This document shows positions 1-12,724 of a stretch of 12,724 bases of DNA, one piece after another; position 1 is the stretch's first letter; every line of letters begins with the position of its first letter. The position numbers and the translations under genes were made by a program. The notes under the pieces were generated by a model. That model was given only the letters and a program-made list of their open reading frames with translations. It was not told the DNA's origin and did not search any database. This DNA is from an uncultured archaeon (GTDB lineage Archaea; Asgardarchaeota; Jordiarchaeia; Jordiarchaeales; Jordiarchaeaceae): the NCBI GenBank assembly GCA_964510585.1, contig CAZECW010000155.1, positions 1 to 12,724 of the forward strand, in the 5' to 3' direction.

Positions 1-1434
1 GTCGTATACCTGCAAAAAATAGCCAAACACATTGTTTTCCGCCTCCCAATTATTACAGCCATTATTAACGAAATTGACCTCAAAGCCCGAACCTCGAAAA
101 AAACAGACTACAGCAAGTACACAGCCCTACGTGGAGCCAGCCCCATTATGCTGCTAAGCAAGGAGGAAGCCAGAAAAATAGAACCCAAACTAAGCGACAA
201 AATACTCCTTGCCGCCTATTTTGACGAAATGTTCATTGACCCATTCAGACTCTGCATGCTAAACGCCCTATCCGCCAAGAATCACGGTGCAGTGGTTCGC
301 AACTACACCGAGGTCATCGACATCATAAGAAACGGCGACAGGGTGGAGGGCGTAATAGCAAAGGACAAAAGAACCGGAGAGGTTGAAGAAATCTACGGCA
401 AGTTTGTTGCCAACTGCGCCGGACCCTGGGTACCCCGAATATCGAAAATGGCAGGCATAGATCAACCTCTCAGGCTAAATAAGGGCTCCCACGTTATTTT
501 CGACCGAAGGGTAACCGGGGTGGGAGTTGTCTGCAGAGCTCTGGATGGAAGATCAGTTTATCTCTTCCCACACTTCGACACAACTGTTCTGGGCACAACC
601 GCCTGGGACATTTTCGGGAGCCCAGACGACGCCGAAACCAGCTATGATGACGTGGAGTACCTCATTTCAAGCATCGAGGCAGCCGTGCCCTCAATCAGGG
701 AAGCCCGAGTTATAAGAACCATGTGTGGCGTGCGTCCTATGCTGCCTGAATGGTGGATAACTGAAGATGAGGCCACCCGCAACTTTAAACTGGTGGATCA
801 CGAGGAACGCGATGGGGTTAAGGGAATTGTGAGTTTTGAGGGAGGGAAACTGGTTATCTACAGAGTGATGGCGGAAAAGATGACCGACCTTATTTGCAAG
901 AAGCTAGGCATAAAGGCTGAGTGTAGAACGCACATAGAACCCCTGCCCGGCGCAGAGGGCGAAGTGGACATAGAATTGTGGTCCGAAGAATATAATATGC
1001 CCACCCACACCGTGGGAAGGATAGCGAGCAGACATGGGTCCAACACTCCGGAAGTCTTGAAGCTTACTCGGGAGAATCCTGAGTACAAGTCCACCATTTG
1101 TAGGTGTGAGTCTGTAACTGAGGCTGAGATAAGGTACTCTCTACGAAACGAGTTTGCAACCAGTCTGAGTGACCTTCGCAGGAGGGTGAGACTGGGGATG
1201 GGTCCCTGTCAGAGCACCTTCTGCAACTTTAAAGCCCTTGCCATAATTGCCGATGAGCTTAATCTCAATCCTGAGAAGGTTCACAAAGATGCCTTGGATT
1301 TCGCTCAAGAGAGGTGGAAGGGAAAATGTGTTTTACTACGGGGGGACCAGGTGAGTGAGGAGGAAATTAACCAGGCAATATACGCTGGAGTCGCAAACTA
1401 TGATACACTACCAGATTTCTGGAGGAGGGACTAA
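1..1434 (+). CDS. glpA: Anaerobic glycerol-3-phosphate dehydrogenase subunit A (FAD), 5'-truncated by the window edge
   Basis: The frame is open from base 1 (VVYLQKIAKHIVFRLP...), so the ATG at 148 is internal. Motifs: ANCAGPW, NKGSHVIF, GTT, GVRP, GGKLVIYR, and the C-terminal BFD-like [2Fe-2S] motif CRCE...RLGMGPCQSTFC typical of GlpA. The N-terminal GxGxxG lies outside the window. Confidence 0.9.
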   Translation, partial: VVYLQKIAKHIVFRLPIITAIINEIDLKARTSKKTDYSKYTALRGASPIMLLSKEEARKIEPKLSDKILLAAYFDEMFIDPFRLCMLNALSAKNHGAVVRNYTEVIDIIRNGDRVEGVIAKDKRTGEVEEIYGKFVANCAGPWVPRISKMAGIDQPLRLNKGSHVIFDRRVTGVGVVCRALDGRSVYLFPHFDTTVLGTTAWDIFGSPDDAETSYDDVEYLISSIEAAVPSIREARVIRTMCGVRPMLPEWWITEDEATRNFKLVDHEERDGVKGIVSFEGGKLVIYRVMAEKMTDLICKKLGIKAECRTHIEPLPGAEGEVDIELWSEEYNMPTHTVGRIASRHGSNTPEVLKLTRENPEYKSTICRCESVTEAEIRYSLRNEFATSLSDLRRRVRLGMGPCQSTFCNFKALAIIADELNLNPEKVHKDALDFAQERWKGKCVLLRGDQVSEEEINQAIYAGVANYDTLPDFWRRD

Positions 1435-1435
1435 G

Positions 1436-2770
1436 GTGAAGGTAGACGTTTGCGTTATAGGCGCTGGGGTAGCCGGCTTGACAGCTGCAAGAAAGGCGGC
1501 TGAAAAGGGGCTTAAAGTTCTGGCTGCGGAGAAGGGTTCCGGAGCCACTATACAATCATCGGGTGTAATTGACGTAGCGGGTTACCTCCCCCCTAATCAT
1601 ATGTTCACTTCTGCTTCTGAGGGTGTACGTACCATAGCTGAAAAGGTTAAGAATCATCCCTACTCAATTATTGGAGGAGGCAAAAAATCTGAGCCCGAGA
1701 GGAGAGGTCGAGAATCGGAGAGAAACGTTAGAAGGGCCTTAGACTTTTTTGTAGAGGGCATGAAGTCTGTAGGGGTTAATTTTAGGGGCTCTCTTGATGA
1801 AAATGTTTTGGTGACAAATTTTTTGGGAACATTTAAGCCTACCTGTCTCTGCCCCTCCACAATATACAATGGTGATTTGAGGAGGCTGGACGGTTCTTCA
1901 CTGGTACTGGTGGGGGTTAAGGGATTTCCCGACTATGATTCCAAGTTCTGCGCCCAATCCCTATCAGACATATTACCCTGCCTTGGGATTAAGCCCAAGT
2001 CTGTGAGCCACGCTTACATAGATGTTCCCGGTCTGGAGGGTAGGGGAGACATTTTGGCAATTGAAATTGCAAGAAAGATGGATGATCCACAAGTTCTGGA
2101 AAAGATTGGGCAAAGTCTTCAAAAAGTTGCAGGTTCCGCAGAGCATTTGGCTATCCCCACCTGTGGAGTTCAATCCCCCGAGGAAAACATTAAAACTCTT
2201 GCGGAAGCCACTGGAGCCAATGTTTTCGAATTGGCTTCTTTTCCCCCCTCGGTTCCCGGCTACCGTCTGGTCAAAAGTCTTGAAAATTTGGCCCAAAAGG
2301 CTGGCGTTAGTGTTCGGCGGGGATACAAAATTTTGGATGCAAAATTTGACAAAAATGTGAAAAGCTTGAGGGTGGAGGTTGGCAGAAAAATAGTGGAAAT
2401 TGAGGCCGACGTGTATATACTGGCTTCAGGGGGCTTTCTGGGGGGAGGCCTAAAGGAGGAAAAGGATTTCATAAGAGAATCAATATTCAATCTGCCAGTT
2501 TACAGCAGTGACGGCATAAATCTTGAGGAGGTCTACCTGGAAAAGCTACTTAGTAGAAAAGTGTTTCCCAAGGGAGGACACCAGCTTTTTTCATGCGGAA
2601 TCCTTGTCGATGAAAACCTGCAGCCCCTATCAGAAAAGGGGGAACCAGTGTACGGCAACCTTTACGCCGCGGGAGCCATACTCTCTGGATACAACTATAT
2701 GGCGGAAAAGAGCGGAATGGGCGTAGCCATAGCAACAGGCTACCTGGCTGGATTGAAGGCGTCAAGTTAG
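1436..2770 (+). CDS. glpB: Anaerobic glycerol-3-phosphate dehydrogenase subunit B (flavoprotein), about 444 aa
   Basis: Start moved from 1355 to the GTG at 1436, which lies 1 nt after the glpA stop and follows GGAGGAGG at 1421-1428. It gives MKVDVCVIGAGVAG (Rossmann fold). GlpB motifs: GATIQSSGVIDV, LASGGFLGGGL, NLYAAGAILSGY...SGMGVAIATGYLAG. Confidence 0.88.
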   Translation: MKVDVCVIGAGVAGLTAARKAAEKGLKVLAAEKGSGATIQSSGVIDVAGYLPPNHMFTSASEGVRTIAEKVKNHPYSIIGGGKKSEPERRGRESERNVRRALDFFVEGMKSVGVNFRGSLDENVLVTNFLGTFKPTCLCPSTIYNGDLRRLDGSSLVLVGVKGFPDYDSKFCAQSLSDILPCLGIKPKSVSHAYIDVPGLEGRGDILAIEIARKMDDPQVLEKIGQSLQKVAGSAEHLAIPTCGVQSPEENIKTLAEATGANVFELASFPPSVPGYRLVKSLENLAQKAGVSVRRGYKILDAKFDKNVKSLRVEVGRKIVEIEADVYILASGGFLGGGLKEEKDFIRESIFNLPVYSSDGINLEEVYLEKLLSRKVFPKGGHQLFSCGILVDENLQPLSEKGEPVYGNLYAAGAILSGYNYMAEKSGMGVAIATGYLAGLKASS

Positions 2771-2792
2771 GTTAAGGCGGAGGAAAATTAAA

Positions 2793-4016
2793 ATGCCGGA
2801 AAAGGAGTTAGAACACATAGAAGGAATAATGAGGGAAGAAGACATAGTACTCATGAGGCCAGAGGAGGAGGAAACGTACAAAAAGGTTGAGGCTTGCCAG
2901 AATTGCGGGTTATGTTTGGTCGTGTGTCCCATACTTGAGGTTCTTCAGCATGAAGCCTATTCTGGTCCCCGAAGCATAACCAGCGAACTCTCAAGAACTG
3001 TAAGGGAATTTTGGAAGGCCAAGGATGTGGTGTACTATTGTACCTTGTGTGGGCGGTGCCAGGAAATCTGCTCCAAAAATGTGCCCGTGCCAAAGGTGGT
3101 GAGTCTCATCCGCTCAAAGCTATTTAAGCAGAGAAGAGAGTTGATGCCTGCAAACTTTCAGGCTATGCTTGAAAACCTAAACAATTATGGTTTAGCATTT
3201 GAACCAATGGATAAAGAGGAAAGGGTGGAGAGTGCTAGGGGGAGACTGGAAATGTTGGGGCTTCCCTACGTGCCGGACAAAGTAAAATCCAATGCTGAGA
3301 TTCTCTACTTTCCGGGCTGTCAGGCGGAAAATCTTCTTCCAGAAATTAGGGAGAGCGCTAAACTGGTTATGGAGAAAATGGGGGTTGACTACACCCTATT
3401 GCCAGACCTAAAATGCTGTAGCCTCCCCTCAATACTCATGGGAGACTCAGAAACCGCTGAGAAGCTGCAAAAGGACTTTCTGGAAAAAATGAGGAGTGTG
3501 GGCGCCAAAATAGTCGTTACCACCTGTGCGGGCTGCACCGCAACCCTTGCGGAAATAAGGGACAGGAGTAATGGGGACTTCGAGGTAAAGCACCTAATTG
3601 AATACATTTTGGAGGATTTTGGGAAGGAAAAATTCGGAAAACTCGTTCCCAACCATCCTGAGAATGTTAGTGTAACCCTACACTCGCCCTGCCACCTGGA
3701 CAGACACGTGGGCAAATACACCACGGAATACGCGGAAGAACTCCTAGGAATGCTGCCCAAAGTGGAGTTCAAAAAACTAGGGGAGCCTGGAAGGTGCTGT
3801 GGAGCAGGAGGGCTACTCAACCTCTACAATCCCCAAATATCAAGAGAGATAGCTAAGAAAGAAATTGAAGAAATCCAAAAATTAAACGTGCAAAACGTGG
3901 TCACACCCTGCCCCCTCTGCTTAGTACAAATAGACCAAGCGCTTTTCAAAAAGAAGTCCAAAACCCAGGCTCTCGACTACACAGTATTCCTAGCGAAAAG
4001 ATTATACGGGGCATAG
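2793..4016 (+). CDS. glpC: GlpC/HdrD/GlcF-family Fe-S protein with two 4Fe-4S motifs and two CCG domains; probable G3P dehydrogenase subunit C
   Basis: CQNCGLCLVVCP and CTLCGRCQEIC, then CCG elements YFPGC, KCCS, TTCAGC, HSPCH, RCCGAGG, TPCPLC. GGAGG lies upstream, 22 nt after glpB. The gene symbol rests on position. Confidence 0.78.
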   Translation: MPEKELEHIEGIMREEDIVLMRPEEEETYKKVEACQNCGLCLVVCPILEVLQHEAYSGPRSITSELSRTVREFWKAKDVVYYCTLCGRCQEICSKNVPVPKVVSLIRSKLFKQRRELMPANFQAMLENLNNYGLAFEPMDKEERVESARGRLEMLGLPYVPDKVKSNAEILYFPGCQAENLLPEIRESAKLVMEKMGVDYTLLPDLKCCSLPSILMGDSETAEKLQKDFLEKMRSVGAKIVVTTCAGCTATLAEIRDRSNGDFEVKHLIEYILEDFGKEKFGKLVPNHPENVSVTLHSPCHLDRHVGKYTTEYAEELLGMLPKVEFKKLGEPGRCCGAGGLLNLYNPQISREIAKKEIEEIQKLNVQNVVTPCPLCLVQIDQALFKKKSKTQALDYTVFLAKRLYGA

Positions 4017-4117
4017 ACCGTAACAAAAAAGAGAAACCACAAAAATATTTGCATTAAGCCTATCGTAACATTCATCAATATCACAATTATACGAAGTTGC
4101 CAGTTTCTGGAAGGTGA

Positions 4118-5569
4118 ATGGTAGTGAAGGAAAATTTGGAGTTGGATTTTGTGAAGAAGATGATTTATGATGAACTGGTGGAAATTGTGGGGGCTGAAAA
4201 TGTTTCGGTGTCCGAGGCTGACAAAATCTGTTACTCCCGGGACGCTTGGCCCAAAGCATTAATGTGGATTGATTTGGCCAAAAAATTGCCCCTACCGGAC
4301 TACATTGTCCACGTGGAGAACAAGGAGCAAATATCAAAGATTCTTAAGCTTGCCAACACCAGGAAGATTCCCGTTATCCCCTTTGCCGGTGGGGCTGGAG
4401 CCTGTGGACAGGTTGTGCCAATCCATGGGGGAATAATTCTTGATGTTAAAAAAATGGACAAAATTCTGAGAATAGACGAAGTGTCAGCCACTGTAACCGC
4501 CCAGCCTGGAATAATTGGGGAGGACCTGGAAAGGGAACTGAACAAGAGGGGATTCACTACGGGACATTTTCCCGCTTCCCAGTACACTTCCTGTCTGGGG
4601 GGCTTTGTGGCCTGCCGCTCAGCGGGATCCCTATCATCCAAGTACGGGAAAATAGAGGACATGGTAATCTCAATGGAGGTGGTGCTGCCCAACGGCGAAA
4701 TTATACGCACAAAAACAGTACCCAGAACCTCTGCAGGCCCCAATCTAAACCAACTATTCCTGGGATCTGAGGGAACACTGGGAGTAATTACTGAGGTAAC
4801 CCTGAGACTGCACCCCCTACCTGAGGAGAGGAGATTCAAAGCATTCATAATGAAAGACCTCAAAACAGGACTCGAAACAGTAAGGCAAATCTTCAGGAAA
4901 GGCCTCCGACCAGCGGTCATAAGGCTCTACGATGAACTAGACACAGTGTTCACACTAAAAGGCAAACTACAAATACCACCCGGAGCCTGCTACCTAATCT
5001 TAGCCTTCGACGGGGATAAAGAAATGGTAGACTTTGAAGAAAAACAAACCACCAAAATCTGCTTGAAAAATGAGGGCAAAGAAGTGGAAAAGGAACTAGC
5101 CGAGTACTGGTGGAACCACAGATACGACATGTATTTCCCCCACCCGGACCGCGCAAAAATGGGTCTAGTCGCCGACACAATAGACGTAGTAACAACCTGG
5201 GACAAGCTGGAAGAACTCTACTACGGAGTAAAGAAAGCAATAACCGACAGACACCCAAATGTTTTCATAATGTCCCACTTCTCCCACTTCTACCCTGAGG
5301 GAGGCAGCATATACATAATATTCGCTTTTCAGGAGCCAGACAGAGAAAAAGCCCTCCAAATGTACACCGAAATCTGGAACGACGGCCTGGAAGCCTGCCA
5401 CAAAATAGGGGCCTCAGTAGCCCACCACCACGGCATTGGCCTACTAAGAGCGAAATGGATGAGGAAAGAGCACGGCGAAGAAGGATTCAAGCTACTACAA
5501 GCAATCAAAAAAGCAATCGACCCAAACAACATAATGAACCCCGGAAAAATGGGATTCGAATCAAAATAA
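4118..5569 (+). CDS. FAD-binding oxidoreductase (VAO/PCMH fold) of the alkyl-dihydroxyacetonephosphate synthase (AGPS)/YgcU-like subfamily
   Basis: TTGHFPAS..S.LGG.VA.RSAG..S.KYG.IEDMV, PRTSAGPNLNQLFLGSEGTLGVITE, RPAVIRLYD, SHFYPEGGSIY, VAHHHGIG, DPNNIMNPGK. It lacks the GlcD/Dld motifs GHAGDGNLH and GEHG. The start could be the GTG at 4124, which is 6 nt after GGTGA. Confidence 0.85.
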   Translation: MVVKENLELDFVKKMIYDELVEIVGAENVSVSEADKICYSRDAWPKALMWIDLAKKLPLPDYIVHVENKEQISKILKLANTRKIPVIPFAGGAGACGQVVPIHGGIILDVKKMDKILRIDEVSATVTAQPGIIGEDLERELNKRGFTTGHFPASQYTSCLGGFVACRSAGSLSSKYGKIEDMVISMEVVLPNGEIIRTKTVPRTSAGPNLNQLFLGSEGTLGVITEVTLRLHPLPEERRFKAFIMKDLKTGLETVRQIFRKGLRPAVIRLYDELDTVFTLKGKLQIPPGACYLILAFDGDKEMVDFEEKQTTKICLKNEGKEVEKELAEYWWNHRYDMYFPHPDRAKMGLVADTIDVVTTWDKLEELYYGVKKAITDRHPNVFIMSHFSHFYPEGGSIYIIFAFQEPDREKALQMYTEIWNDGLEACHKIGASVAHHHGIGLLRAKWMRKEHGEEGFKLLQAIKKAIDPNNIMNPGKMGFESK

Positions 5570-5650
5570 AAGGATTCCAACCAAAAATTTAGTCAGCTCT
5601 CCCTCCCTTTTTATTGCTTAACTCCTAATAGTCTAAACAATGGATACTGT
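5570..5650. terminator. Convergent intergenic gap with T-tracts on both strands; putative archaeal terminators
   Basis: 81 nt lie between two converging stop codons, with a pyrimidine/T run on + (ctctccctccctttttatt) and a T5 run on - (forward 5584-5588). Inferred from position and composition only. Confidence 0.35.
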
Positions 5651-6514
5651 TTAGATGATTTTTGCGTGTTTAATTTGCATTTCTTTTTCGGGCATTTTTT
5701 GGAGGAGTCCCATTTTTTGGAATTCTTCCTCTGCTTCTTCTAGTGTTAAGGGTACTTTGCTGAGCCCAATTTTTTTGGCTAATGATACGAAGGGCGGTGG
5801 TTCTATTCCCGCATCCCTTAGGAGTTCTTCGTCGGTTAGAATTTTTCTTGTTTCATCATATGCTACCACTTTGCCCTTCTTCATTATCGCCACTTTGTTT
5901 GCGAGTAGGGGAATGATTTGCACGTCGAAACTGGTAAACACCAGAGTTAATTTATGCTCTTTTTCTAAATCTTTTATGATTGAGATTATCATGTTCTTTG
6001 TTTCGAAGTCTAGGTTCGCCGTTGGCTCATCCATTACTAGAATTTTTGGCTCCATCACTAAGACACCTGCTAACGCAACCAGCTTCTTCTGGCCTCCGCT
6101 AAGGAAATGTGGAACCTTATTTCGGAACTGGTATAGGCCCAATTTTTTCAGTAGCTTTTCTGTTTCTTCTAAGGCTTCCTCCCTCGGTTTTGTGTTAAGT
6201 GCTCCGAAGGCTACATCATCCAGCACAGTTGGCATAAAGAGTTGGTCATCGGACTCCTGGAAAACTATACCCACATTTTTTCTGGCATAGTTCACATTCT
6301 TCTTTGTAATCTTCACCCCATATATGTAAACTGATCCACTGGATGGATGCAAGGTTCCGTTCAAATGCAAGAGAAGAGTTGTTTTTCCACTTCCATTCGC
6401 TCCCAGTATGGCAACAGATTCGCCTTCCTCCACACTCAAATCCACACCATTCAGTGAAGGCGTCCCATCAGGATACCAATGTTTCACATCCTCCATTCTA
6501 ATAGCCAAAGTCAT
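5651..6514 (-). CDS. cbiO: ECF transporter ATPase (CbiO/NikO), with a degenerate H-loop
   Basis: Walker A GANGSGKTT, Q-loop VFQESDDQLF, signature LSGGQKK, Walker B ILVMDEP, D-loop TANLD. It overlaps the cbiQ stop by 4 nt (ATGA). Confidence 0.93.
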   Translation of the reverse strand: MTLAIRMEDVKHWYPDGTPSLNGVDLSVEEGESVAILGANGSGKTTLLLHLNGTLHPSSGSVYIYGVKITKKNVNYARKNVGIVFQESDDQLFMPTVLDDVAFGALNTKPREEALEETEKLLKKLGLYQFRNKVPHFLSGGQKKLVALAGVLVMEPKILVMDEPTANLDFETKNMIISIIKDLEKEHKLTLVFTSFDVQIIPLLANKVAIMKKGKVVAYDETRKILTDEELLRDAGIEPPPFVSLAKKIGLSKVPLTLEEAEEEFQKMGLLQKMPEKEMQIKHAKII

Positions 6515-7251
6515 AATGCTACCACCCTTTCCAAATATACTAGAAATAGAGGTAAAGCTACGGCTAACGCAAGGTAAGCCGCGTCTCTCAACCTGAACCT
6601 CACATCTGAAACAAGGCTCAGCCGGCCCGTATATCCCCTCGACTTCATTGCGACATAAACCTTTTCAGTCTTATCATACCCCCTCAAAATCAGGTTAACA
6701 ATCATGGATCCAAAGAGTTTAATTTTTCTACTCCAGGGAATACCCTCTCCCTGCCTCACATTCGCCGCGATAAACGTTTTCTGCGCTTCACCAAAAAAGT
6801 AGAAAATGTACCTTAAAGAGAGTAGAAAGGCGTCAGACAACCAGGAGGGAAGAATCCGAGACACATACTTTCCTAAGCTCATAGTAGGAGTAGACAAAAC
6901 CAGTAAAAACATGTACCAAGCAGCAGTCATCCCCTTCACCAAAATTTTGAGAATATACTCCCAACCATAACCAATGAGGGGAAGAAAAATTACAATTGAA
7001 ACAACGAAAAAGGCGGGCAAAGCACTCCACACCAACAACCTCCCCAAAGGCAACCTAGCAACAAAAAACAACAACCAAACCAAAACCGACAAAACCAAGA
7101 TTAAACGCAAGTTCTGAAGATACACTGTGGCCAAAACCATAGCCAAAGAAAAAACAAGCTTCCCCACAGGATGCAACCTATGCACAACTGAATCCAAACC
7201 AGAGTAATAATCAATAATCATAGGATTAGGAAGCAATGAATGAAACTCCAA
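6511..7251 (-). CDS. cbiQ: ECF transporter transmembrane T component (CbiQ/NikQ), about 246 aa
   Basis: Hydrophobic protein with S.VHRLHP..K, LRY and coupling-helix arginines (ANVRQG, AMKSRGY). Start moved to the TTG at 7251, 6 nt after GGAGGTG; the ATG at 7221 is an alternative. Confidence 0.88.
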   Translation of the reverse strand: MEFHSLLPNPMIIDYYSGLDSVVHRLHPVGKLVFSLAMVLATVYLQNLRLILVLSVLVWLLFFVARLPLGRLLVWSALPAFFVVSIVIFLPLIGYGWEYILKILVKGMTAAWYMFLLVLSTPTMSLGKYVSRILPSWLSDAFLLSLRYIFYFFGEAQKTFIAANVRQGEGIPWSRKIKLFGSMIVNLILRGYDKTEKVYVAMKSRGYTGRLSLVSDVRFRLRDAAYLALAVALPLFLVYLERVVAL

Positions 7252-7340
7252 AGCAAGCACCTCCCAACAAAAAATTGAAATTGAAAAATTAAGATTCAAA
7301 CTTTACCAAATACACTATTCAATTTGTATGGGCAACCACA

Positions 7341-8177
7341 CTAGTCCATAGGACCCTCTACTACAACTGATTCTTCCAATATATCGGGCCTAGTTTTAGC
7401 AAGAGTTTCAACTATTATCCCAGTTACCACAGCCTCAATCACTCCCACACCAGCATTGACCGGCAGCATAGCAGCCAAAAAGGCGCTGAACGAGTTAGTA
7501 CTGGCTATAATTGCGTTGAAAACAGCGTAGTAAACGTTTATTTCCATTATGGGGCCGAAAACTGGTTCCAGAAGCCACCCCAAGAGCATTTCACCCAAAG
7601 CCTCCAATTCATGCGGAAAGATTTGCGGGATAGGAATCAAAGGATTACCCAAAAAGTTAACCAGTGCGGTTTGAAACTGCTGGAAACCACCAGAAAAGGT
7701 AACAATGGTAACCGCCGCAAAGGTTCCAGCAATAAGCGCTACGAAGGTTGCCAGCCCAGCAGACACATCTCTCCTTTTAAGATAACGTTTCAAACCCACA
7801 TATACGCCAAAGCCTAGTGAGATCTCCACAAAGAGAACCACGGTGTTCGCCCCGATAACCGTAACCCCACCATGTCCCACTGCAGCGCTGAAAACGTTTA
7901 TTAGGAAAACAATTATCGCCCCAAACCATGGACCTGCCAGTATGCCTGCTAGAGGTGTGAAGTTCAGGTGTGTGCCTCCCAGAGGTGCTGGAACCGGTAT
8001 TTGCATTATTACAAACAGGAGACCGGTGAGAAGAGCGAATAGTACTACTTGGCGTTGGGAAGCTCCCTTCCTTTTTATCATGTAGAGACTGACAAGGAGT
8101 ATCCCTGCAGTTACTGCAAACCACAGAGCGCACCATTCAAGCGGCATGATTCCATCGGGTAAGTGTATATGCGCCAT
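7341..8177 (-). CDS. cbiM: ECF Ni/Co substrate-binding S component (CbiM/NikM family), 278 aa
   Basis: Start moved to the ATG at 8177, after GTGAGG, giving MAHIHLPDG. Motifs GGTHLNFTPLAGILAGP, GHGGVTVIGAN and a terminal GVIEAVVTG...RPDIL. Ni versus Co specificity cannot be read from the sequence; the adjacent nikR favours nickel. Confidence 0.88.
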   Translation of the reverse strand: MAHIHLPDGIMPLEWCALWFAVTAGILLVSLYMIKRKGASQRQVVLFALLTGLLFVIMQIPVPAPLGGTHLNFTPLAGILAGPWFGAIIVFLINVFSAAVGHGGVTVIGANTVVLFVEISLGFGVYVGLKRYLKRRDVSAGLATFVALIAGTFAAVTIVTFSGGFQQFQTALVNFLGNPLIPIPQIFPHELEALGEMLLGWLLEPVFGPIMEINVYYAVFNAIIASTNSFSAFLAAMLPVNAGVGVIEAVVTGIIVETLAKTRPDILEESVVVEGPMD

Positions 8178-8216
8178 AATCCTCACTTTATTAACTTTCA
8201 GCAATATTATTAATAA

Positions 8217-8243
8217 GAAATACATAAAAATTTTTCCTATTCT
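8217..8243. promoter_or_regulatory. Candidate NikR operator in the cbiM promoter
   Basis: GAAATAC-N13-CTATTCT is an imperfect dyad (AATA-N15-TATT core) 40-66 nt upstream of the cbiM ATG. It sits between two AT-rich TATA-like boxes (8205-8216 and 8243-8250). Confidence 0.3.
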
Positions 8244-8418
8244 TAATAAAACTACAAAAATCAGACAACCGGCATCAAAAATCCCGGCCCAGATACAGCG
8301 TTAGCCTCCATAACATTGACTCCCCCCTCAACAGTTCCACAAGAAGACCCCCTCCCAAGAACTAGAAGAATCAGGCACATCTCTAGGTACTGTTATCTTG
8401 AGTTTCTCACGGCCGAGC

Positions 8419-8445
8419 CAAAAAAGGAGAGGAACCCTCTTCTCT
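8419..8445 (-). terminator. Possible terminator downstream of nikR
   Basis: The minus strand reads gaAGAGG-gtt-CCTCTcc-TTTTTT, a short stem followed by T6, about 70-90 nt past the nikR stop. Confidence 0.3.
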
Positions 8446-8511
8446 AACTTGCCAAAGAGAATACTTCTAAAAGGCTGGAAGAATACTTTTTAAAAAGTGC
8501 GATAGCTTCTC

Positions 8512-8910
8512 TTAAACTTCTGCTAGCGTTGAGACATATTTAACCTGTTTGACGCCTTTAATATGTTTAATTTTCTGGATGATCTCCATGATTCTCGTCG
8601 AAATGCCCTTAACCACAAAAACCTCCAAGCAGTTAACCTGATCCAAATGCATGTGCATAAGAGTGTGGATAATGTCATCATAATTGTGCTCCAGGCTAAA
8701 CAAGGGATCCCTGTGGACACTCTTGTCGTAAATCACCAAAATAACCGCAATTGTTTCTTCACTAGTCCCCTTTGCCCACTCCGCCTCAACAACAATATCC
8801 CTAATAAAATCCCTGAGAGCCTCAGACCTACTAGAATACCCCTTATACTTCAAAACGTTATCCAACTTTTCCAACAAACTATCATTAATAGAGAGACTAA
8901 TAATAGGCAT
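8512..8910 (-). CDS. nikR: Nickel-responsive ribbon-helix-helix regulator NikR
   Basis: N-terminal RHH domain (PIISLSI...LDNVL...GYSSRSEALRD) and a C-terminal ACT-like domain with all four Ni ligands in pattern (LEH...HMH...NCLEV). It lies beside an ECF metal transporter. Confidence 0.93.
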   Translation of the reverse strand: MPIISLSINDSLLEKLDNVLKYKGYSSRSEALRDFIRDIVVEAEWAKGTSEETIAVILVIYDKSVHRDPLFSLEHNYDDIIHTLMHMHLDQVNCLEVFVVKGISTRIMEIIQKIKHIKGVKQVKYVSTLAEV

Positions 8911-10010: not shown

Positions 10011-10445
10011 TTACCCTGTTTTATACTCAATTTTCCCATTTTTTCCATTCTTTGGGGGCTCGATCTTGAAGCTTATGTCAAACTCGCCGCAGTAAGCCCT
10101 CATAAAGGATTCGCAGAAGTGGGGACAGAAGTTAGTCACACCACTTATCCTCGCCGTCCGCATATATCCGCAGTTCTCAAGGTTACATTCCGCCTCTGCC
10201 TTTTTCCCCTTAATCTCTTTCGGGTGAGGAATACCAAGAGACGCACCCAACATTAAAAGGTAACGCAAAGCATACTCCCTATCCTTTCCAAAAATCCTCT
10301 TAACACTCTGAGCCGCGTTAAAACCCTGAGCCGCAGCATAATCACGCTCACTACCCGTCCTTTGAGCAAACTGGTAACCACCAACAATGGCAGCCAAACA
10401 AAAAGTTTTGGCAATCTCCAACTTCTCATCACTGGAAAACGACAT
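10011..10445 (-). CDS. Hypothetical protein, possibly V4R/ATC-hydrolase-like fold with clustered cysteines
   Basis: 144-aa ORF with GGAGG 6 nt upstream. The pattern ECNLENCGY...A...G...FCPHFC followed by beta-strand-like segments resembles V4R-like proteins; this resemblance is from recall only. Confidence 0.7.
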   Translation of the reverse strand: MSFSSDEKLEIAKTFCLAAIVGGYQFAQRTGSERDYAAAQGFNAAQSVKRIFGKDREYALRYLLMLGASLGIPHPKEIKGKKAEAECNLENCGYMRTARISGVTNFCPHFCESFMRAYCGEFDISFKIEPPKNGKNGKIEYKTG

Positions 10446-11294: not shown

Positions 11295-11480
11295 CTTCCC
11301 TCCAAATAAGGAAAGTAATTTAAAGAGGAAAGCGGAAGATATCTATGACTTCTACAAAAGTAATAAATATACCTATCATCACATATTATTCTTGAATAAA
11401 TTTTAAAGCTTCTAAATTAAAGAAAAATGCATATGGGGAAAAGCGTTGCCTAGAAAAATTGATTCAATCCCAGTAGGTTG

Positions 11481-12724
11481 ATGGATTTGCTTGGCAAAGT
11501 AAATAAGAGACATATACTAGGTCTTGCACTTACTCTATTCTTAAGTGTATTAATAATAGCGCCTATCCTCGCATCAAACAACCAGATACCTGCTCCACTA
11601 AACTCCCTTATCAATTACAATTCTCCAGTCAATTCTAAGGCTAATCCCGGACCTGTGCCATTGTCTAATTGGTGGAATACTAGTTGGGGATACCGGGTAC
11701 AAGTCAATGTAACAGAGCCAGGGTATTATGATAGAATAAACCAGTCAGTCATAGTAAACCTTAACTTCGACGAAGAAAAATGTTACAATAACAGCATTCG
11801 AGTACTTTACTACAATGACTCCACATCCCAATGGGTGGAAGTGCCAAGTCAAGTAGAGAATAAAACCTATCACTCCTCACCCTACAATAATTACCTCAAG
11901 AGTTGCTCTCTCATTTTTCTAGCCAACGTCACCAAGGGAGGAACCTCAACATACTATGTATACTACAACACCACCTATAATGAAGCACCCAAAACATACT
12001 CAACCCCCCTCAACGTCACCTACGGTACACCCTACCCCGGTTACAGCAGTGGAAGCTATATTCACTTTGAAACCGGATTAATAAACGGCACCTACATGGT
12101 TGTTAAACCCAGCGGATACAACGGAGACGGCGACGCATCCTTCCAAGAATTCTGGGTCAGCGGATATAACCTTATAGCCTCCACTGGAACTCACAGAGGA
12201 ATAGACCGTATAGACGCAGACTGGGACTGCTACATTAACTGGCAGGTAGAATTTCTAGAACAAGGACCACTAAGAGTTAAAGTTAAAGTATACAAATTAA
12301 GCACTGATACCACCGTAACTGGTTTTAGTTATGGACCCACAAACAAGACCTACACCTTCTACGCCTATCAAAGCTATGTCTCCGTCCTAGTTGAAAGCGC
12401 AACCCCCAGTAACCAAATATACGACTTCGCAACCATATACGTCACAAACCAGTGGAACTTCTACGTAGACAGCACCAACCTAGGAACAGCAACAAGCTAT
12501 AACGGTGGCACTTGGACTGATAGAAAAGCTCCCAATCAACCTCAAAACTATACTGCGCTTATCAGAAATGATGGTATTGGATTAGGTCTTCTCGGTGCTC
12601 CACAATGGCCGAGAGACACTGCAAATGGCACCAGTATGGAGTACGGCGTAGGTATAGATAAAGGTAGCACATGGGGGAATAATCCGAACAATTTTGGTAA
12701 CAGGAATGATGGAAGAGAAGGACA
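11481..12724 (+). CDS. Secreted or cell-surface glycoprotein with a DUF2341-like N-terminal domain; 3'-truncated by the window and absent from the ORF track
   Basis: ATG at 11481 follows an in-frame TGA at 11460 and is open for 414 codons to the window end. Signal peptide MDLLGKVNKRHILGLALTLFLSVLIIAPILA, motifs WWNTSWGYRVQVNVTEPG and WVEVPSQV, 13 N-x-S/T sequons, rich in Y/T/N/S. Confidence 0.88.
   Translation, partial: MDLLGKVNKRHILGLALTLFLSVLIIAPILASNNQIPAPLNSLINYNSPVNSKANPGPVPLSNWWNTSWGYRVQVNVTEPGYYDRINQSVIVNLNFDEEKCYNNSIRVLYYNDSTSQWVEVPSQVENKTYHSSPYNNYLKSCSLIFLANVTKGGTSTYYVYYNTTYNEAPKTYSTPLNVTYGTPYPGYSSGSYIHFETGLINGTYMVVKPSGYNGDGDASFQEFWVSGYNLIASTGTHRGIDRIDADWDCYINWQVEFLEQGPLRVKVKVYKLSTDTTVTGFSYGPTNKTYTFYAYQSYVSVLVESATPSNQIYDFATIYVTNQWNFYVDSTNLGTATSYNGGTWTDRKAPNQPQNYTALIRNDGIGLGLLGAPQWPRDTANGTSMEYGVGIDKGSTWGNNPNNFGNRNDGREG

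Follow-up and report, generated by a model that had tools for sequence, protein, structure and literature searches.

We analysed a 12,724-nt contig (C155) from an uncultured archaeon, here called the window, which begins with three genes of a GlpABC-type sn-glycerol-3-phosphate (G3P) dehydrogenase. These are followed by AGPSL, a gene for a flavoprotein resembling the ether-lipid enzyme alkyldihydroxyacetonephosphate synthase (AGPS) (Table 1). An earlier note on this DNA had described four co-oriented genes separated by 1, 22 and 101 nt, and had taken the source to be an archaeon. The open reading frame (ORF) listing, family scans and a reading of the junctions bear out the arrangement, with a GGAGG/GGTGA-type ribosome-binding site at each gap. 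The fourth protein is most similar (97% and 87% identity) to homologues labelled Candidatus Jordarchaeaceae or Jordarchaeum, and the next tiers comprise Jordarchaeales, Atabeyarchaeia, and Njord-, Thor-, Hel-, Hod- and Lokiarchaeota; these matches place the organism among the Asgard archaea. DNA matching positions 2800-5600 occurs in hot-spring metagenomes and in one subsurface DNA metagenome, with no RNA data set among those listed.

Table 1. Features of the window (nt positions; ORF, open reading frame; ECF, energy-coupling factor)
Feature	Position	Strand	Description
glpA	1..1434	+	FAD G3P-dehydrogenase-type catalytic subunit; 5'-open at contig start; PF01266 (DAO), PF16901 (DAO_C), PF04324 (BFD [2Fe-2S])
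glpB	1436..2770	+	Second flavoprotein subunit; GTG start 1 nt past glpA stop; GGAGG upstream
glpC-like	2793..4016	+	Iron-sulfur subunit; PF13183 (2x[4Fe-4S]) and two PF02754 (CCG) stretches
glpC-AGPSL intergenic gap	4017..4117	+	A-rich, without an oligo-T run; TATA-like AAAATATTT at ~4041-4049; GGTGA ribosome-binding site at 4111-4115
AGPSL	4118..5569	+	AGPS-type FAD-linked flavoprotein; 483 aa from ATG 4118; PF01565 (6.6e-39), PF02913 (2.4e-42)
T5 run	5608..5612	+	39 nt past AGPSL stop, in the convergent spacer before cbiO; read from the sequence
cbiO-cbiQ-cbiM and nikR	5651-8910	-	ECF-type metal transporter and regulator; convergent to the glp cluster
144-aa ORF	10011-10445	-	
415-aa ORF	11478-12722	+	Reaches the contig end

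The three upstream genes have the domain content and A-B-C gene order of GlpABC. In an NCBIfam scan, the partial GlpA has TIGR03377 (GlpA) as its best family (364 bits), and GlpB exceeds its equivalog cut-off (TIGR03378, 205.5 versus 174.15 bits). The glpC-like protein has TfrB, LdhH and GlpC as its best matches, all below their cut-offs (TIGR03379, 97 versus 279.9 bits), and we use the name glpC on the basis of gene position and domain architecture. The true start of AGPSL is probably the GTG at 4124, which would give a protein of 481 aa and a gap of 107 nt. Neither of the first two codons is a start codon in G038, a genome from the same genus, and its conserved start aligns to this GTG. It also lies 8 nt after the GGTGA, and the 97%-identical database protein is 481 aa long.

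The gap between glpC and AGPSL is 101-142 nt in the window's genus only. In other Asgard families the junction ranges from a 53-nt overlap to a 39-nt gap, a spacing as tight as in an operon, with one locus excepted. At this locus (L120; G023:C1, family f13) a 321-aa ORF lies between glpC and AGPSL, with gaps of 671 and 626 nt; thus, tightness of the junction is not universal. A scan with sigma-70 promoter and intrinsic-terminator models, which are not applicable to archaea, gave counts equal to those expected from shuffled sequence. Archaeal transcription often terminates at oligo-T runs, and the T5 run downstream of AGPSL is a possible, if tentative, terminator signal.

Judged by its active-site residues, AGPSL is AGPS-type, and not of the GlcD or D-lactate-dehydrogenase type. 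Its best sequence matches in the PDB are AGPS from Dictyostelium (2uuu, 1.5e-62) and from the guinea pig, Cavia (4bby, 1e-57), with D-lactate dehydrogenase ranking below them (1.5e-46). A Foldseek search with an AlphaFold model of AGPSL (mean predicted local distance difference test score, pLDDT, 86.8) returned 5ae2 and 4bby (guinea-pig AGPS) as top matches, with a TM-score of 0.85 on the query. Both domains of the VAO/PCMH fold of AGPS (EC 2.5.1.26, also ADPS) are present: the flavin adenine dinucleotide (FAD)-binding domain and the FAD-oxidase C-terminal, or cap, domain. AGPSL carries the catalytic motifs AVIRLYD (Arg269), GGSIY (Tyr399) and AHHHGIG (His436-438). In HMMER alignments, Arg269 corresponds to Cavia Arg419 and Dictyostelium Arg352, Tyr399 to Tyr578 and Tyr508, and His436-438 to the HHH loop at 615-617. 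Arg269, Tyr399, His436 and His438 are invariant among 48 homologues, while the middle His is a Gln in Thor-type sequences. The label “AGPS-like” given to this gene in the earlier note is thus well founded.

Paralogues of AGPSL in the same genome provide an internal control. At the same columns, the FAD-oxidase paralogues on contigs C60 and C170 carry Glu in place of the Arg, together with HAGDGN(L/I)H and GEHG or AEHG. At the HxGDGNxH and GEHG positions AGPSL has HFSHFYPEGGSIY and AHHHGIG, respectively, and so does not match the metal motifs of 2-hydroxyacid dehydrogenases. In a maximum-likelihood tree, the AGPS-type clade is split from the GlcD-type sequences with a Shimodaira-Hasegawa-like approximate likelihood-ratio test (SH-aLRT) value of 100. 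The tree was built without eukaryotic AGPS sequences, whose position was judged from motifs only.

The HHH loop varies among homologues. It is H-Q-H in a large Asgard group (L121-L127, L019 and L058, with two labelled Thorarchaeota and Hermod) and E-H-H or D-H-H in Chloroflexota, Kiritimatiellae, Opitutia, Spirochaetota and Thermoleophilaceae (L006, L009-L013, L016, L017). The Arg and Tyr are constant throughout. These loop variants may mark subgroups with different chemistry.

Other features of AGPS are absent from AGPSL. Residue roles were taken from a review (PMC3509576) and from PDB entry titles. That review describes an extra domain found only in ADPS, consisting of a beta-sheet and a “gate-keeping” helix that controls the C16 (fatty-chain) channel, and counts R352, Y508 and R447 in the Dictyostelium enzyme among the residues that matter for catalysis (PMC3509576). 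HMMER alignment to 2uuu and 4bby shows that this N-terminal gating domain is missing from AGPSL: its residues 51 and 59 pair with residue 129 of the Dictyostelium chain and residue 205 of Cavia, respectively. At 483 aa versus 584-658 for AGPS, AGPSL is ~100-170 residues shorter. Its model covers mouse D-lactate dehydrogenase more completely than AGPS (TM-score normalised to target, 0.87 versus 0.76; on query, 0.82 for the dehydrogenase). In modelled size and architecture, AGPSL is therefore GlcD-sized. ORF-length estimates of N-terminal extensions in high-GC bacteria were discarded, since open frames there are inflated.

The motif around Dictyostelium Arg447, PY[LI]RD, is likewise absent from all collected Asgard sequences and from an Acidimicrobiia group. 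The position aligned to Arg447 in AGPSL reads HRYDMYFPHPDRA, but this segment aligns less cleanly than the other motifs, making the residue-level call less certain than the absence of the motif. PY[LI]RD is present in the collected Myxococcota, Nocardia-type and Bacteroidales sequences. The PYLRD form shared with eukaryotic AGPS occurs in Myxococcota and Actinobacteria sequences, and not in those of Asgard archaea. This distribution fits a 2026 study that derives eukaryotic AGPS from myxobacteria (PMC13012113).

The linkage of the four genes is real and evolutionarily conserved. We compared gene order within ~20 kb around the AGPSL orthologue in 40 Asgard genomes from 14 families. In 14 of the 40 loci, representing four families, glpABC immediately precedes AGPSL, so the synteny proposed in the earlier note holds among relatives. 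The most constant neighbour of AGPSL is, however, not glpABC. It is a gene that we call CCG2, encoding a protein of ~370-430 aa with a 2x[4Fe-4S] region and two CCG domains (22-42% identical to the CCG2 query), which lies directly downstream of AGPSL in 37 of the 40 loci. Among the first 20 loci, the spacing between the two genes ranges from a 41-nt overlap to a 25-nt gap. In 29 of the 40, the cluster includes an FGGY kinase. The full order is FGGY - GlpA - GlpB - GlpC - AGPSL - CCG2; at loci without glpABC, the kinase abuts the remaining pair as FGGY-AGPSL-CCG2 or AGPSL-CCG2-FGGY. The cluster kinase scores 279 bits to LsrK, 276 to XylB and 224 to GlpK, all below their cut-offs. Other flanking genes are not conserved between Asgard families; they include genes for enoyl-CoA hydratase, metallo-beta-lactamase, radical SAM and GNAT proteins, aldehyde dehydrogenase, ArsA-type ATPase, M42 peptidase, lipoate ligase, methyltransferase and deaminase. 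The cluster arrangement goes unmentioned in a survey of the G3P dehydrogenases of archaea (PMC11962113).

The window's genus is an exception to this pattern. In the complete genome G038, the kinase is encoded upstream of glpA, and three genes in the opposite orientation separate the cluster from CCG2, 3.3 kb downstream. In the window itself, glpC is the sole CCG-type gene, located upstream of AGPSL.

Flavoprotein-CCG pairs also occur beyond the AGPSL cluster. The CCG2 query has 35 matching stretches across the 3.8-Mb genome of the window's organism, several of which adjoin GlcD-type FAD oxidases (C60, C113), and the set of HdrD/GlcF-like proteins in this genome is unusually large. Candidatus Borrarchaeum yapensis (L079) has two tandem pairs of FAD oxidase and CCG protein of the GlcD type (GEHG). 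Thus, pairs of both types coexist in Asgard genomes.

The position of CCG2 directly downstream of AGPSL mirrors the layout of GlcD-GlcF-type dehydrogenases. We modelled the complex of AGPSL and CCG2 from G038, and obtained a score of 0.91 against 0.02 for the best of three controls; a mark of 0.91 was reached by 51 of 78 solved complexes and by 2 of 108 mismatched pairs. Model runs agree in at least 89% of contacts, with a partner pLDDT of at least 90. At the predicted interface, residues 8-77 of CCG2, its ferredoxin domain, dock on the AGPSL FAD-binding domain at residues 28-61, 87-110, 129-153 and 332-342. The model supports binding of the two proteins, although such a score expresses likeness to real complexes and could reflect the memory of a solved one. 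A PDB sequence search with CCG2 returned no flavoprotein-CCG complex of this kind; it found HdrB subunits as relatives, along with one “iron-sulfur-binding reductase”. The Asgard pair has in common with GlcDEF glycolate oxidase, and with D-lactate dehydrogenases accompanied by GlcF or CCG proteins, a VAO flavoprotein gene beside a gene for a 2x[4Fe-4S] and 2xCCG protein. In the Asgard pair, the modelled contact runs from ferredoxin domain to FAD domain. The pair differs from these systems in that AGPSL has AGPS-type residues in place of metal ligands and falls in a separate clade.

A second electron-transfer system accompanies the same flavoprotein type in Escherichia coli. YgcU of strain K-12 is a short AGPS-type protein (484 aa, 33% identity, E 7e-83) with RLYD, SHSY..Y and HHHG motifs. 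Its gene lies within ygcW-ygcU-ygcS-ygcR-ygcQ, together with the beta and alpha subunits of an electron-transfer flavoprotein (ETF; YgcR and YgcQ). Nearby are ygcN and ygcO, which resemble ETF-QO and FixX, and the pair yqcE-ygcE, encoding a major facilitator superfamily (MFS) transporter and the FGGY kinase YgcE. In all, the cluster (ygcNOP, ygcQRSUW, yqcE-ygcE) holds two MFS transporters and a short-chain dehydrogenase/reductase. It therefore resembles the Asgard cluster in combining a short AGPS-type protein, an FGGY kinase and a dedicated electron-transfer system, but its partners are ETF alpha and beta and FixC/FixX-like proteins with no CCG protein, it lacks GlpA and GlpD, and it includes the transporters and the reductase. 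Since a redox-neutral AGPS has no need of an electron-transfer partner, the presence of CCG2 or of ETF genes speaks for a dehydrogenase. That one flavoprotein type is joined to two unrelated electron-transfer systems is hard to reconcile with a redox-neutral synthase.

Bacterial relatives show a similar association with glycerol genes. We examined 80 loci, mostly from bacteria, among the matches listed in a genome-wide scan. In ~30 of these, the AGPS-type gene directly follows a GlpD or GlpA homologue (Acidimicrobiia, Streptomyces, Actinomadura, Paraburkholderia, Bacteroidales), and an FGGY kinase gene usually precedes or follows. The pairing of AGPS-like with glycerol genes that the earlier note mentioned for actinobacteria is accordingly found in Streptomyces, Actinomadura and Acidimicrobiia. 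Arrangements include GlpD-AGPSL-FGGY, FGGY-GlpD-AGPSL and AGPSL-FGGY. In Nocardia- and Rhodococcus-type loci, the AGPS-type gene is divergent to glpD, with a gene for a lipid kinase of the YegS or diacylglycerol (DAG) kinase type downstream. In Afipia, Brucella and Methylobacterium, it adjoins genes for an FGGY kinase and a MalK-type ATPase. CCG2 follows the AGPS-type gene in Chloroflexota, Kiritimatiellae, Opitutia, Spirochaetota, Bacillota and a Thermoplasmatales archaeon, and one Anaerolineae contig has the same glpA-B-C-AGPSL-CCG2 order as Asgard archaea. Several CCG2-paired bacteria and alphaproteobacteria have sugar-type neighbours: a MalK-like ATPase, a xylose-isomerase-like TIM barrel and a GFO/IDH/MocA oxidoreductase. 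In the tree, CCG2-paired lineages lie at the poorly resolved base of the AGPS-type clade, and the GlpD-linked and PYLRD clades are nested in a group of 55 rows (SH-aLRT 83). This weakly suggests that partnership with an iron-sulfur subunit came first.

One bacterial locus of this kind has been studied genetically. In Pseudomonas aeruginosa, PA3026 (FAD oxidoreductase), PA3025 (GlpD homologue), PA3024 (FGGY kinase) and PA3023 (lipid kinase) are strongly activated by GliR, together with a phospholipase C, and a route from glycerol to alkylglycerone phosphate was proposed for the operon from database mining alone (PMC8151288). By the paper's annotation and by analogous loci, the PA3026 operon shares with the Asgard cluster an AGPS-like FAD oxidoreductase, a GlpD homologue and an FGGY kinase. 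It differs in being from an aerobe, in having a single-subunit GlpD rather than GlpABC, in lacking a CCG partner and in the adjacent YegS-type lipid kinase.

The GlpABC of the window is a divergent paralogue beside a canonical operon. A full-length orthologue of the window-type GlpA (97% identical) reaches 442.5 bits, short of the 552.8 set as the cut-off for the GlpA equivalog. A second operon in the same genome, on contig C25 (L149:5101-10502, minus strand), has the order FGGY - GlpA2 - GlpB2 - GlpC2, and its GlpA2 passes this cut-off (613.6 bits). The C25 kinase passes the equivalog cut-off for XylB (413.9 versus 380.25 bits), not that for GlpK. The difference between the two GlpA proteins suggests that the window enzyme may take a substrate that differs from, or is broader than, free G3P. 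Compared with the GlpK-GlpABC pathway of E. coli and Haloferax volcanii, the window cluster has the same glpA-glpB-glpC order and domain content, and its relatives have an upstream FGGY kinase. The differences are that GlpA and GlpC of the window fall below the equivalog cut-offs, that the cluster kinase scores nearer to LsrK and XylB than to GlpK, and that the Asgard operon is extended by AGPSL and CCG2, with the canonical second operon lying on C25.

Taken together, we consider it about an even chance (roughly 0.5) that AGPSL, partnered by CCG2, forms the catalytic subunit of a FAD/iron-sulfur dehydrogenase acting together with the FGGY kinase and the GlpABC paralogue on a small phosphorylated substrate of the glycerol type. 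From gene identities, motifs, synteny and the modelled interface, we infer a redox role, a substrate class and an order of steps. The pair would have a GlcD-GlcF-like layout in which the AGPS-type Arg, Tyr and HHH loop stand in place of the 2-hydroxyacid-dehydrogenase metal site. The kinase would phosphorylate glycerol or a small glycerol-like polyol, and the GlpABC paralogue would oxidise the phosphate ester to a ketol phosphate of the dihydroxyacetone phosphate (DHAP) type. AGPSL might then hold the same C3 phosphate skeleton beside flavin N5, as AGPS holds the DHAP moiety, for a further or parallel oxidation, with electrons leaving through the ferredoxin domain of CCG2. Candidate substrates would be DHAP, sn-glycerol-1-phosphate (G1P; the other glycerol-phosphate enantiomer) and 1-substituted G3P or DHAP. 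The presence of the kinase in 29 of 40 Asgard clusters, together with the bacterial GlpD/FGGY arrangements, points to a catabolic, kinase-dependent context, and the missing gating domain and sugar-type neighbours are hints of a small substrate.

Several observations weigh against a dehydrogenase of this kind. In the window's own genome, the CCG2 orthologue lies away from the window (C197:7230-8180, cut by the contig end), and no close orthologue of the cluster kinase was found there, the best match being 42% identical. The GlpD-linked bacterial clusters show no obvious electron acceptor for AGPSL. All residues for the redox-neutral covalent catalysis of AGPS are kept, which would also fit exchange or cleavage. 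The contact between AGPSL and CCG2 is a model prediction, and the “glycerol-type” substrate is deduced from synteny and from the homology of AGPSL to an enzyme that binds DHAP. Deletion of the PA3026-PA3024 operon in P. aeruginosa gave no phenotype (PMC8151288), and we found no biochemical characterisation of any short AGPS-type protein in the literature.

The first alternative is a catabolic route in which the kinase acts on a 1-O-substituted glycerol, either an ether or an ester, the GlpABC paralogue oxidises the resulting substituted G3P to 1-substituted DHAP, and AGPSL expels the substituent through a covalent flavin-N5 adduct to yield DHAP. This would be an oxygen-independent cleavage of ethers or esters, in which CCG2 merely keeps the flavin oxidised and active, or restores it to that state, in a reducing anaerobic cytoplasm. 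The triad of kinase, GlpA or GlpD, and AGPS-type protein recurs across Asgard archaea and bacteria, and all three residues or motifs for covalent catalysis are retained. The divergent GlpA beside a canonical GlpABC allows for a different substrate, and is the one observation that keeps this idea alive. A YegS/DAG-kinase-like lipid kinase adjoins the gene in the “PYLRD” clade (Nocardia-type) and in P. aeruginosa, where a phospholipase C is co-regulated (PMC8151288). Furthermore, judging from taxon names among the matches listed, CCG2-paired lineages are mostly anaerobes and GlpD-paired ones mostly aerobes. However, the Asgard and CCG2-paired proteins lack both the gating domain and the Arg447 motif, FGGY kinases and GlpA/GlpD are known to act on soluble substrates, and the Asgard clusters have no conserved lipase, esterase or alcohol dehydrogenase. 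A translationally coupled, stoichiometric iron-sulfur subunit and the ETF genes of E. coli also exceed what a repair role needs. We therefore regard this route as unlikely, although it deserves some weight. Slightly less probable is its extended form, in which the kinase-GlpABC-AGPSL-CCG2 system cleaves glyceryl ethers or esters without oxygen and the short AGPS-type enzymes of anaerobes are ancestral, via reversed chemistry, to the ether-lipid synthase of myxobacteria and eukaryotes. The earlier note had joined GlpABC and the AGPS-like protein in one route that could run in either direction. The conserved linkage and the kept Arg, Tyr and HHH loop favour a shared route; its biosynthetic direction is not supported, with no PlsC/GNPAT-type acyltransferase found in the 96%-complete genome and with the gating domain and Arg447 motif absent. 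The expectation that the synteny would be widespread but biochemically uncharacterised proved correct, for Asgard archaea and for many bacteria.

Two further readings fare worse than the dehydrogenase for glycerol-type phosphates. AGPSL, with or without CCG2, could be an ordinary 2-hydroxyacid dehydrogenase of the D-lactate/glycolate type that lies near glpABC by chance or through shared regulation of fermentative carbon flow. GlcD (TIGR00387) is indeed its best NCBIfam match, mouse D-lactate dehydrogenase fits its fold nearly as well as AGPS does, and GlcD-type FAD oxidases are paired with CCG proteins elsewhere in the genome (C60, C113). Yet the GlcD score of 234 bits is far below the cut-off of 567.9, the GDGNxH and GEHG motifs kept in the genome's true GlcD-type paralogues are replaced by those of AGPS, and the clade is separate with full SH-aLRT support. 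Chance also does not explain linkage to GlpA/GlpD and FGGY genes across many unrelated phyla, which makes this reading quite improbable. Less probable still, and very unlikely, is a true alkyl-DHAP synthase making G3P-backbone ether lipids in Asgard archaea, as the earlier note had envisaged with regard to the lipid divide. AGPS is the best match by sequence and fold, its catalytic residues are kept, and many homologues carry the label “alkyldihydroxyacetonephosphate synthase” from Joint Genome Institute (JGI) pipelines. This proposal is nevertheless disfavoured by the lack of the AGPS-only N-terminal domain and Arg447 motif, by the occurrence of the eukaryote-shared PYLRD in Myxococcota and Actinobacteria sequences but not in Asgard ones, by the conserved iron-sulfur partner, and by the catabolic kinase/dehydrogenase context. 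Moreover, the 96%-complete genome has no match to PF01553 (the PlsC/GNPAT-type acyltransferase family), and hence no known acyl-DHAP route, while control searches gave matches in 10 of 14 reference genomes; a missing match in an incomplete genome nonetheless falls short of proving absence. The genome does hold a G1P-dehydrogenase-like Fe-ADH_2 gene. Its PF07993 matches lie in reading frames of 46-531 aa, which may or may not include a fatty-acyl reductase. In the literature, we found no paper tying alkyldihydroxyacetonephosphate synthase to Asgard archaea that is relevant to this locus.

To our knowledge, no enzyme other than AGPS forms the ether bond in the ether lipids of eukaryotes and myxobacteria, a reaction that relies on unusual covalent flavin chemistry. 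The AGPS active-site signature is found here in a shorter protein that appears to be wired to iron-sulfur or ETF carriers and is encoded within kinase and G3P-dehydrogenase clusters in Asgard archaea, in many bacterial phyla and in E. coli (YgcU). Identifying the substrate of AGPSL would fill a gap in the catabolism of glycerol and polyol phosphates by anaerobes, and would reveal what AGPS evolved from. It would also settle what bearing Asgard “AGPS” annotations have on membrane evolution, which on present evidence is probably none. “Agps homologues” have been counted in many bacteria and some archaea by BLAST alone (PMC11868695), and alkyl-DHAP synthase is listed among ancient lipid enzymes in a LUCA (last universal common ancestor) reconstruction (PMC11383801). 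Our results urge caution about KEGG-style AGPS calls in lipid-divide or LUCA reconstructions.

The upstream flank of the glp cluster could be recovered from a second contig. Contig C200 (2455 bp) overlaps, as an exact reverse complement, the first 141 bases of the window. It carries the missing N-terminus of GlpA, comprising the first ~81 codons (L004:142-384, minus strand; GlpA profile positions 1-77). A contig of G056, a related genome, runs colinear with the joined sequence across the junction, at 88.7% nucleotide identity over 8.6 kb, so the join is sound. Upstream of glpA lies a divergent 534-aa ORF with no Pfam or NCBIfam match; the kinases, lipases and acyltransferases that the earlier note had suggested looking for are not there.

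Downstream of AGPSL, the metal-transport genes are unrelated to the glp cluster, and the block of cbiO-cbiQ-cbiM and nikR sits where CCG2 is found in most Asgard relatives. The 144-aa ORF further along the window is syntenic with the gene that precedes CCG2 in G038, so that synteny would predict CCG2 after it. Instead there is the 415-aa ORF, which has a hydrophobic N-terminus and no family match, and is not CCG2. This arrangement points to a local rearrangement in this species.

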